From assembly GCF_963921235.1 (NCBI RefSeq), contig NC_086097.1, positions 153,762,001-153,826,000 on the forward strand: a stretch of 64,000 nucleotides of DNA, in the 5' to 3' direction. Of this stretch, positions 17,547 to 53,380 are shown piece after piece. Each line of letters starts with the position of its first letter. Within the stretch, counting starts at the first letter, position 1. Source of the stretch: Mobula hypostoma. Taxonomy: Eukaryota. A program made the position numbers and the translations under genes. The notes under the pieces were generated by a model. It did not search any database. It had not been told where the DNA came from and saw nothing but the letters and a program-made list of their open reading frames with translations.

Positions 17547-18930
17547 TAATTGAATTCAGCTGATTGAGCAACATCTATTCCTTTCCTCCCACAGATGCTG
17601 CTTCATCCACCGAGTTCCTCCAGCAGTTTTTTTTAATAAAGCTGAGGCTCAAAGATATAAATGACATTGTGGACCAGCCTCAAGAGAATGTGAAACATAT
17701 TGTACAACGTTCTTGTTCGAATTGTGATTGTAAAGGAGAGTGCTGGCATGGAGCGATGTGAAGGAGCTGGTTCAGTACTGGTCAAAGACTATACATACAC
17801 ATTTCAAATTGCTCAATATTTGCTCTTTATAGAAACAAGTACTGTTTGGAAATTGTAACCAATGTGAGAATGATGAAGGGTCTCAGTCTGAAATGTCAAC
17901 TATTTATTCCCCTCCATAGATTCTGCCCGACCAGCAGCATTCATCCAGCATTTTGTGTATTTATGAGAACGTTGCGTTTGTTTTGCAGGGGTACATTAGG
18001 CAGGTGAATCCAGGAAGGTAGCTGGTGCTGGCAAAGGGGGCATAGAAATGCATAACTGTGGAGGCTATCCCACCTGCAGCATCTCACTTCCCCCATACTA
18101 GCATGTATAATGCTGGTATCTGAGTGCTGTGTGAATTGTGCCTTAAAGAGCTGTTGAACTTTTCTGGGTGCTGCCCAACAAAGTGGTGGAAATTGCATTA
18201 ACAGCGATACTGCTCTGATTGGGATCTATGAAGGTCATGTTTCAGCACCACCACTAAGACTGAAACCATATTATAAGGTTGTTAGAATGCATTGAGACAC
18301 AAAAATGTATATTTGTACAGTAGCTAGGCTCTTGGGACATAAGGACACAGCAGGTGACACTGTCCAATAGAATTACAATCTAAATTCTTCCACATATACT
18401 GGGCAAGTAATATATTCATTGTTTGAATATTCATTATGCACACAAATATTGTGGCATACTTTTAATTAATCTCATAATATATTTGGAAGATCTTGATCTA
18501 GCTGTCATGCACTAGATAAGTAAGTTCCAATTTGATTTAAGTTTGACAGATATGACTCATTTGATCAGTTTAAGCATCTCAGCTGTATCACCCTCTGTCA
18601 TTTGTATTCGGTTAAACATTTGTTAATGATATTATTTTTTCATAGCCAATATTGCCATTTTATTATTGTGCATTCTAGTGCAGTAGTCTTATTGCAAGCT
18701 TTTATTGCTATTGGATACAGGGCCAATTTTTCATTCAAATTGCTGCACTTAAATGGAATCCAGCAAATTGCCTGGCTCTTTCATTTAATCCACCATATTT
18801 GTCTTTGGTGCTTTACTCTCCATTTCTTCCTGTCTTGCTTTAATTATGTTTCCAATGAGGAAAAAAATGCATTAATGTTCACAATTCTCAAGAAAAGAAC
18901 TAAATACAATTGAGAAACAAAACTAAAAGA

Positions 18931-19076
18931 AAACAATAGGAATTCTGCAGATGCTGGAAATTCAAGCAGCACACATCAAAGTTGCTGGTGAACGCAGCAG
19001 GCCAGGCAGCATCTATAGGAAGAGGTGCAGTCGATGTTTCAGGCCGAGACCCTTCATCAGGACTAACTGAAGGACT
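18931..19076 (-). mobile_element. 146-bp Penelope-tail mini-insertion containing a minimal hammerhead motif
   Basis: Perfect 15-bp TSD AACAAAACTAAAAGA at 18916-18930 and 19077-19091. Confidence 0.85.
19029..19064 (-). ncRNA. Minimal type I hammerhead ribozyme motif
   Basis: Minus strand AGTC-CTGATGA-AGGGTCTCGGCCT-GAAAC-ATC-GACT: stem I AGTC/GACT, core CUGAUGA and GAAA, stem II AGG/CCT, NUH triplet. Stem III is vestigial, as described for PLE hammerheads. Confidence 0.65.
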
Positions 19077-19169
19077 AACAAAACTAAAAGACTCATTCTC
19101 TCTGACAGTTTTATTTGAAATAAATTTCTGCTCCCTGAATGTAAAAACTCTACAAACTGTTCTAAAACA

Positions 19170-19645
19170 ATACACATAAAATGCTGGAGGAGCTCAGCAT
19201 CTATGGAAATTAATAAACAATTGATGTTTCAGGCCGAGACCCTTCCACAGGACTGGAAAGGAAGGGGGAAGACAACAGAATGAAAAGGTGGCAGAAGGGA
19301 AGGAGAATAGCTAGAAAGTGTTAGGTGAAGCCAGGTGGGTAGGAAAGGTACAGGCCTGGAGGGGAAGAAACCTGATAGGAAAGGAAGGTGGACCATAAGG
19401 GAAGGGAAAGGAGGAGGCGACCCAGGGAGAAGTGATAGGCAGGTGAGAACAGATAAGATACTCGAGTGGAGAACAGAAGAAGAGGGGAGGGGAAGGAAAA
19501 AAATTATTACCAGAAAGACAAATTGGCATTCATGCCTTCAGGTTGAAGGCTACCCAGAAGCATATAAGGTGTTGCTCCTTCGCATGAGGATGGCATCATT
19601 GTGGCACAAGAGGAAGCCATGGACCAACATATTGGAATAGAAATG
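19170..19645 (-). mobile_element. Penelope-like element 3' remnant
   Basis: Minus strand VHGFLLCHNDAILMRKEQHLI, pyrimidine-rich UTR and hammerhead-like tail at ~19220-19255. Confidence 0.75.
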
Positions 19646-29900: not shown

Positions 29901-30127
29901 AAATAATATAAAGAATAGGGTAGAGCATCCCAGAGCCACAAGACAACAAATGTCATGTCACATGAGTCAAACCAGGCTCTGAGACCGTGGACTAGCTAAT
30001 TGAAGAATGATCATCTATGATGGAATGAAAAAGAATCAAAAGTAAGCCAAAAGCCAGATTTGGAGAGGCATAGAGATATTGGGAGAACTGGAGGGCTGAA
30101 AGGTATTAGAGATAGAATAGATTAGGA

Positions 30128-30195
30128 CGACTGCGCCTCTTCCTATAGATGCTGCTTGGCCTGCTGCGTTCACCAGCAACTTTGATGTATGTTGC
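30128..30195 (+). mobile_element. 68-bp Penelope-tail micro-insertion
   Basis: Perfect 11-bp TSD ATAGATTAGGA (30117-30127, 30196-30206). Sequence matches the post-hammerhead part of the 18931-19076 and 53246-53380 copies. Confidence 0.85.
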
Positions 30196-31127
30196 ATAGA
30201 TTAGGATGAGGTTAGTTAGCTACTTGAAAGCGAGTGTGATTTTTTTAATTTCAAAGTGTTGGCAAACCAAGAACCATTAAGTTGAACCATAAGTTTTGGT
30301 AGGAGTTAGGATACTTAATTGATAACTAGAAGATAATAATATCAGAATGGAATAGTTGTTGTTTTAATAAAAAAGGGAACATTAATTGTTCATATCTTCT
30401 AGGAGGAGCATGGAAAAGGTGCACCTGTAGGTTACACTTGAAACGTAACATTATAGGCGCTCATGGAAAATGTAAACCAGAATATCATTGATTGTGCATT
30501 ACACACAATCTTTCACTTAGAGGAAGGACTATGTATCTCACTCCCAGTTGGAGAGCTCATGAATAATGGAACTTTTACAAGAGCAAAAGGACCCTTTATA
30601 ATGCTCTGACACCAGAGCAATCTTTCATAATCATTCTGCAAGCTTTGGTGGTACAGTAATTTCATTACTGTCAATGTGAGAATTCACTGTAGTGAATGAT
30701 AACACTACATCCAGAATGAGTTTGGAAATGTCGATAATATCCATTGATTAAGCGGGATATAACAGTGATGACATTGTGTTACTGCCTTTAGCTGTCATGC
30801 TTGAGTTATGCCCTTTTACTAATGGAAGGAAAAACGACATTTGGTGTCAGTAGTGCTGTACGTTTTTATGTAAAATCCTGGTGGTCCGAATCTGATAGAA
30901 TGCTTCACTCAAGAAACATAAATTGAGCTATACCTATCAGCAATAAATATGAACATTAACATTTTGTTTGCCTTATATGCATGCTTTAAAAAATCTGGAC
31001 TATTTTTAATTATGAAGGGGAATTTAGCTGCTGCTTATTGAGGTGAGGTCCAACTTTTCCATCTATTACCGAGTCTTTCCAGTTAATTCTGGCTTTACTA
31101 TTACAAGATAATTTCCATCTCATGAGA

Positions 31128-52288: not shown

Positions 52289-53245
52289 TGGCAGATTCGT
52301 GAGTCTTTTTAAAATCAGAATCAGAATCGGGTTTAATATCACCGGCATATGTTGTGAAATTTGTTAATTTGGCGGCAGCAGTACAATTCAATACATGATA
52401 ATATAGAAAAAGATAAACAGATCAATTAAAGTAAGTATATATGTACTTTAAATAGTTTATCCATTTTGAAATCAGATGGCAGAGAGGAAGAAGCTGTTCC
52501 TGAATCTCTGAGTGTGTGTTTTCATGCTCCGGTACCTCCTTCCAGATGGTAACAATGAGAAGAGGGCATGTCCTGAGTGATGGGGGCAGCTTTTCTGAGC
52601 ACCACTCCTTGAAAATCTCTTGGAGACTACAGAGCCTAGTACCCAGGATGGAGCTGACTAATTGTACAACTTTCTGTAGCTTCTTTCGATCCAGTGCAGT
52701 AGACACCCCGCCCCACCCCCACCATACCAGATAGTGATGCAGCCAGTCAGAATGCTCTACCTGGTACATCTGTAGAAGTTTTCAAGTGTTTTAGGTGACA
52801 AACCAAATTTCTTCAAACTCCTAATGAAATATAGCCACTGTCTTGCCTTCTTTATAGTTGCATCTATACGTCAGGACCAGGTTAGATCCTCAGAGACCTT
52901 GACAGTCAGGAACTTGAAATTGTTCACTCCCTCCACTTCTGATCCCTTTATGAGGATTGGTTCAATGTTCCCTCATCTTACCCTTATTGAAGTCCACATT
53001 CAGATCTTTCATCTTACTGATATTGAGTACACGGTTGTTGTACAACACCACTCAACTTGCTAGTATGTCTCACTCCTGTATGCCCTCTCATCGCCATCTG
53101 AAAATCTACCAATAATGGTTGTATCATCAGCAAATTTATAGATGGCATTTGAACTATACCTCACCACACAGAGAGAGCAGATTAGTGAGCTAAGTACACA
53201 TCCCTGAGCTGCAGCAGTGTTGTTTGTCAGCAAAGAAGAGATATT

Positions 53246-53380
53246 AGTCCTGATGAAGGATCTCGGCCCAAAACGTCAACTGTACCTCTTCCTAGAGATG
53301 CTGCCTGGCCTGCTGCGTTCACTAGCAGCTTTGATGTGTGTTGCTTGAGCTTCCAGCATCTGCAGAACTCCTTGTGTTTA
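53246..53380 (+). mobile_element. ~135-bp Penelope-tail mini-insertion with hammerhead motif (core G>A)
   Basis: AGTC-CTGATGA-AGGATCTCGGCCC-AAAAC-GTC-AACT followed by the same tail as 18931-19076. Interrupts the Rex1-like LINE, with ATTA on both sides. Confidence 0.8.

Follow-up and report, generated by a model that had tools for sequence, protein, structure and literature searches.

The role of the hammerhead ribozymes of Penelope-like elements (PLEs) is stated to be unclear (PMC8557442), and a short insertion in the window, by which we mean the whole 64,000-nucleotide stretch of Mobula hypostoma DNA analysed here, raises the question whether such a ribozyme has left its mark on the genome. 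The initial annotation had noticed that a 68-bp insert begins at a predicted hammerhead cleavage site and had proposed that it was copied from a ribozyme-cleaved RNA. If this reading were true, the insert would be the first in vivo trace of cleavage, held in the genome. Our analysis points instead to an ordinary 5'-truncated PLE insertion, most likely derived from uncut RNA, to which we assign a probability of about 80%. The start of the insert one base from the cut is within background scatter, and for a single copy no proof of origin is possible.

The insert and its siblings in the window

The insert occupies positions 30128..30195 of the forward strand and is enclosed by a perfect 11-bp direct repeat, ATAGATTAGGA, which was read in the sequence at 30117..30127 (+) and 30196..30206 (+) and represents the left and right target-site duplication (TSD), respectively. 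Both the repeat and its coordinates are thereby confirmed as annotated. By computation, an 11-mer direct repeat this close to both junctions (~5 nt) would arise by chance with a probability of ~5e-5. Element positions are numbered from +1, the first base 3' of the predicted scissile bond (GAAACGTC^GACTG; minimal-hammerhead scheme of PMC4209133), and alignment to sibling copies assigns positions -1 to +67 to the insert. Its 3' end at +67 coincides with the shorter (+60 to +74) of two 3'-end modes of the family. The first base (30128..30128, +) corresponds, by alignment to 19033 and in the numbering of PMC4209133, to C17 of the hammerhead (H of NUH), that is, the C preceding the scissile bond, which goes with the 5' fragment on cleavage; the predicted cut falls between insert bases 1 and 2. 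The following five bases (30129..30133, +) are the 3' strand of stem I (+1 to +5), whose partner strand is absent. CUGANGA, stem II and GAAA are missing as well, and the insert had rightly been described as lacking the whole catalytic core.

Since C17 lies 5' of the cut and outside the TSD, the insert begins one base too far upstream for a cleaved template. The annotated start 1 nt from the NUH cleavage position is thus correct in that the insert adjoins the cut, but not with regard to the side, as C17 is kept. The reading proposed initially holds that the cDNA ran to the 5'-OH end of a hammerhead-cleaved RNA and that the extra C is untemplated; inclusion of C17 in the insert speaks against it. 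The TSD reads GGA at its 3' edge while the insert opens with C, so this first C is not derived from the target. The extra bases at other TSD-defined junctions are A, AAGA, AGA, AAA, AAAA, GG, AG and one 8-mer containing C. A lone untemplated C would be atypical, because these additions are A-rich or purine-only save for the one 8-mer, and the C at -1 was likely templated.

The insert is 94% identical to 19033-18966 (-) and 89% identical to 53279-53344 (+). It must be young, since it is identical at 68/68 bases to 11 of 100 family copies taken in genome order. Its flank has no match elsewhere among the family loci compared. A longer copy shortened after insertion, or an event at the DNA level, might also leave such a fragment, and many flank-joined starts in the census described below are without a TSD, as later deletion or insertion would leave them. 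However, a perfect TSD abuts both ends of the insert, its 3' end matches one of the family modes and its sequence carries no mutations; we regard an origin as a remnant as very unlikely.

Two siblings extend further upstream. The first, a 146-bp copy at 18931..19076 (-) read from the sequence, spans -41 to ~+102 plus 3 extra bases, is bounded by 15-bp TSDs (19077-19091 and 18916-18930) and contains a minimal type I hammerhead (19028..19065, -) with one base altered in the helix III palindrome. The second, at 53244..53379 (+), is older, starts at -34 at the edge of a 5'-end hotspot (see below), and has a decayed core; no TSD was seen at this copy. The arrangement GAAAC-(G/A)TC-GACTG previously ascribed to the longer copies is present near 19,030 (GAAAC-ATC-GACTG-CACC), but near 53,270 G12 and G+1 are lost. 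At 19170-19500 (-), ~100 bp from the TSD-flanked sibling, the window also contains a degenerate member of a related but older PLE family, its hammerhead broken.

The parent element and its hammerhead motif

Across the 3.5-Gb genome, the 34-nt tail pattern of the family occurs without mismatch 39,253 times, and long copies run upstream into an open frame of 693 aa (L109:568-2649). A reverse transcriptase (RT) upstream of the same terminal module was detected as a weak match to Pfam RVT_1 (E=3.9e-5, with 23.9 bits against a curated cut-off of 29.6), and a YIDD motif is visible in the L109 frame. By eye, the C-terminus of this frame displays the spacing VIY...YIGE...R...EH, which we take to be GIY-YIG endonuclease-like; Pfam GIY-YIG gave no match at E<=0.01 in the frame. 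A C-X4-C-X2-C linker fits the CX2-5CxxC zinc-finger-like linker between RT and endonuclease (EN), which is a feature of the Neptune (or Nematis) clade (PMC8557442). Judged by these sequence features, the parent is probably an EN-bearing PLE that resembles Neptune in its linker.

Partial tandems or pseudo-LTRs, in which the tail continues into a truncated second terminal module (L009, L016, L058, L212), an adjacent inverted 5'-truncated partner in 39/100 copies and two 3'-end modes, at +60 to +74 in 41/100 and at +100 to +114 in 51/100 copies, are known PLE architecture (PMC8557442; PMC11167929). In these papers, truncated copies of EN-bearing PLEs with an optional 30-40 bp tail share with the present family the single RT+EN ORF, the pseudo-LTRs and partial tandems, the inverted 5'-truncated partner, 3'-end modes ~36 nt apart and TSDs in A/T-rich DNA; the insert differs in that it measures only 68 bp. 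TSD, insert identity, parent ORF and 3'-end modes all bear out the annotation of the insert as a PLE-derived, TSD-flanked retro-insertion. One junction of the family is repeated four times at ~19-21 kb spacing (contig C157:102085-161404), reflecting a tandem segmental repeat that carries a single insertion. Just 5' of the hammerhead, at L109:2915-2941, a branch-point-like, pyrimidine-rich stretch with AG resembles a splice acceptor; Penelope of Drosophila virilis has an intron with a comparable splice acceptor near stem I of its hammerhead (PMC4209133).

By analogy with the anole PLE, whose RT initiates internally at two sites in vitro (PMC11167929), the insert likely arose by target-primed reverse transcription with internal initiation. 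That is, the PLE endonuclease would nick A/T-rich target DNA, and RT, beginning at +67, the nearer of its two internal start sites, would stop after 68 bases, with the hammerhead on the RNA likely still uncut, whereupon repair would duplicate 11 target bases. The preferred stopping point of the family is the foot of stem I (-33 to -29).

The minimal type I hammerhead that had been placed upstream in longer copies is indeed seen as a motif. Among the family loci examined, we found 225 distinct hammerhead motifs with a stem I of at least 4 bp, and in the commonest form the CUGANGA and GAAA core, U16.1-H17, stems I and II and the palindromic helix III are all present. The motif, known here from sequence, resembles the minimal PLE hammerheads of metazoans (Cervera and De la Pena 2014, PMC4209133) in the type I topology, the stem I of 4-5 bp, the unpaired base before stem II and a palindromic ACGU replacing helix III. 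In contrast to the G10.1-C11.1 pair typical of the latter, most young copies have G-U and a minority G-C at this place, and the insert itself carries none of the core. The G-U as first stem II pair (position -9) may reduce activity in the young subfamily. Minimal hammerheads are described to self-cleave weakly and as dimers only (PMC4209133); in the predicted homodimer of the present motif the ACGU:ACGU helix did not form. The predicted folding of one natural copy that carries a stem I mutation was unremarkable (z=0.47), and an Rfam scan of the window returned no hammerhead family and one chance match, minimal motifs being such as escape Rfam. With respect to a cleaved template, the intact core of the motif is a point in favour, whereas the lowest-energy predicted fold is a point against, as the bases at the cut site are paired in it with the catalytic core (-11.7 vs -6.3 kcal/mol for a stem I/II scaffold).

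5' ends around the predicted cut site

A full-text search, with subscription papers mostly outside it, retrieved no genomic 5'-end census around a PLE hammerhead. As an unbiased sample we took the first 100 tail matches in genome order, whose 5' ends are unselected because the anchor starts at +11. Of these copies, 46 extend past -58, 39 are inversion joints, 12 are flank-joined and 3 are forward rearrangements; L098, scripted as a forward rearrangement, is by eye a flank-joined start at +1. Seventeen copies end at -35 to -31 and two are flank-joined starts at +1. At L054, the TSD ends exactly at -1.

For a genome-wide census by position, we searched for a 23-nt anchor of the young family preceded by four bases that do not match the element. 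Total matches upstream of the cut were 34 at -8, 25 at -7, 37 at -5, 66 at -4, 55 at -3, 11 at -2 and 10 at -1. Downstream, there were 93 at +1, 29 at +2, 22 at +3, 30 at +4, 26 at +5 and 124 at +7 (the latter in a broader set, of which 42 belong to the TT subtype). A script sorted the loci into inversions, forward rearrangements and flank-joined starts. At +1, 45 of the 93 loci were examined in full (30 automatic, 15 by-eye picks; 41 distinct) and the remaining 48 were taken to be element-derived on the basis of the 12 letters upstream. Thirty loci each were examined at -8, -5 and -3, and 1, 1 and 4 flank-like rows, respectively, were added by eye; likewise, L280 was added at +2 and L373 was dropped at +4 as a mini-inversion. 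Rates were corrected for the filter and for anchor counts of 34,454 and 42,810, leaving out -4, which was read by eye alone (4-5 flank-like of 66).

Flank-joined starts per 10,000 young copies amounted to 7.9 at -8, 4.0 at -7, 4.4 at -5, 7.0 at -3, 3.7 at -2 and 2.3 at -1, and to 14.8 at +1, 11.8 at +2, 0 at +3, 3.1 at +4 and 4.6 at +5. The underlying counts are 15 at +1, 12 at +2 and 10 at -8, where L519 is an internal deletion and 9 would be an equally defensible count. The ratio of +1 alone to -8 is 1.9 (CI 0.8-4.6, p=0.16). For +1/+2 it is 2.2 relative to -8/-7 (CI 1.15-4.5, p=0.013) and 2.4 relative to five upstream purine-start controls (p=0.002), both comparisons being post hoc and leaving out +7. 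In the TT subtype, a two-thirds subset, flank-joined starts number at least 11 at +7 (30 of 42 matches examined), 10 at +1 and 9 at +2, with the proviso that the +7 control gains more chance extension because it accepts two letters. An earlier sample restricted to -4 to +11 (120 loci, old and young subfamilies) was flat, with 4/29 flank-joined at +1, and is too small against a twofold bump.

The approximately twofold flank-joined excess at +1/+2 over the upstream controls would fit a cleaved template, as would several clean TSD-flanked copies that begin exactly at +1 (L054, L254, L341, L240, L258, L337, L270); in 7/15 flank-joined +1 copies the TSD allows for a cDNA that ended precisely at +1 (5 blunt or with added bases), while 3/4 TSD-bearing -8 starts used microhomology. 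However, at -1, where the insert starts, only 2 of 10 matches are flank-joined, and +7 equals or exceeds +1. Moreover, +3 has none, and microhomology and additions of A or GA seem to shift ends from +3..+5 to +1/+2 (L287, L289, L290). At TSD-defined junctions, true ends at +4, +5 and +8 appear as +2 via microhomology. The census shows a roughly twofold local bump at +1/+2 and no dominant peak at the cut site. As a separate observation, AAGA or AGA is recurrently added just 5' of +1 (L258, L337, L200 and several others); this addition is reverse-complementary to the element at about +10 to +13 and looks like snap-back from a cDNA end at +1/+2.

Most +1 matches are inversion joints, 33/93 of them formed via a 4-nt stem I complement (by eye). 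In these stem I joints the partner arm ends at ~-32 to -29, that is in the hotspot, its end being complementary to +1..+4. An equivalent joint at -4, made by a 4-nt CGTC microhomology and requiring read-through of the cut, accounts for 39/66 matches (39 vs 33, p=0.56; by-eye counts). Since this uncut-side joint is just as frequent, cleavage is not needed to account for the excess at +1 among inverted copies, and the census offers a simple cause for that excess.

The 5'-end hotspot at the foot of stem I

The dominant 5'-end hotspot of the family is located at the foot of stem I, from -33 to -29 and ~31 nt upstream of the cut, and comprises ~18% of copies. Position -32 has 984 census matches vs 93 at +1; 10 of 30 loci examined there are flank-joined, corresponding to at least 246 per 10,000 and at least 16 times the +1 rate, a lower bound obtained with the broader 59,141 anchors as denominator. 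Searching the interval from -41 to -24 yielded 6,238 filtered junctions among 59,141 anchors, which is ~32% after correction; the filter correction is exact for random flank only, and figures for all classes are approximate. Among the first 100 junctions of this interval, 57 fall between -33 and -29, -31 being the mode (by-eye tally), and 30 script-checked loci agree; examples are L563, L567, L569, L592, L597 and L612. The 30 bystander copies from locus flanks include 4 that end between -32 and -30, as against none between -3 and +3.

With their ends upstream of the scissile bond, all hotspot cDNAs crossed a cut site that was intact. The genome-wide census by position thus places the true peak at -33 to -29, leaving at the cut a bump that is matched by +7. 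Given in addition that C17 is kept, the proposal of a ribozyme-cleaved, linear template for the insert is not upheld, and we consider it improbable.

At the hotspot lie the 5' strand of stem I and the foot of a predicted rod-shaped fold that buries the catalytic core, and the hotspot may be either a transcription start or a hairpin stop. Its TTAGTCC is presumably initiator-like, chance matches to such a motif being common. Unlike for the present family, no 5' hotspot at the foot of stem I is described for EN-bearing PLE truncations in the portions of PMC8557442 and PMC11167929 consulted. A spliced-exon origin was discarded, as no recurrent upstream exon appeared in 30+30 loci and no spliced copies were seen; four public runs showed no molecule starts, and GT..AG joints numbered 0 among 15 of their 82 joints listed, which is uninformative either way. 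A cap-derived extra G was inconsistent across TSD-defined junctions, and the stems of an alternative hammerhead register cutting near -32 do not pair when checked by hand.

Read-through could still be compatible with cleavage if the template was re-ligated, that is, if RT copied a cleaved and circularized RNA and the stop at -1 was a pause at the junction or at the GTCGAC/ACGT palindromes. Circular templates have been proposed for PLEs (PMC4209133) and shown for retrozymes (PMC7229834), and perfect fold-backs centred on these palindromes are common. However, a unit-length circle has no end at -32, where (from -33 to -29) almost a fifth of the copies stop, and -1 and -2 are without excess; we therefore rate a circular template as somewhat less probable still than a linear cleaved one. 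Non-LTR retrozymes (PMC7229834; bioRxiv 10.64898/2026.07.22.740005) resemble the insert in being short, non-coding, hammerhead-related and PLE-linked, whereas they consist of tandem monomers with a ribozyme per unit and the insert is a single core-less fragment with an autonomous parent.

Another scenario, doubtful but deserving more credit than either cleaved template for the insert itself, invokes two template states in the family. A large class would derive from uncut RNA starting at -32, the first base pair of the hammerhead, and a rare class of ~50-100 young copies would have run off the ribozyme-cut 5'-OH at +1. Flank-joined starts at -1 to +2 combined amount to ~100 copies (0.3%); the rare class may thus make up at most ~0.3% of copies, and the 68-bp copy would be at best a borderline member of it. 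If this scenario were true, the ratio of the classes would be the first in vivo estimate of cleaved germ-line template, ~2-5%, and PLE hammerhead function would be directly testable.

For truncation on uncut RNA, the reading that we prefer, the negative outcome of the census means that the templates of short insertions are almost all intact at the scissile bond. The same holds for the anole element in vitro, for which unprocessed RNA forms the main substrate and no RNA-seq reads starting at the cut site are reported (PMC11167929, as far as consulted). The census bounds flank-joined cut-site ends at ~0.3% of copies, and it is the -32 boundary that needs explanation.

Two further rearrangements recur at the hammerhead. 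A small deletion joins the core GAC to the GAC at +1 with loss of stem II, the arms starting at the hotspot (L241, L246, L260, L349, L350). In addition, many insertions are perfect fold-backs centred on GTCGAC or ACGT palindromes at the cut site (e.g. L410/L411, L440/L441).
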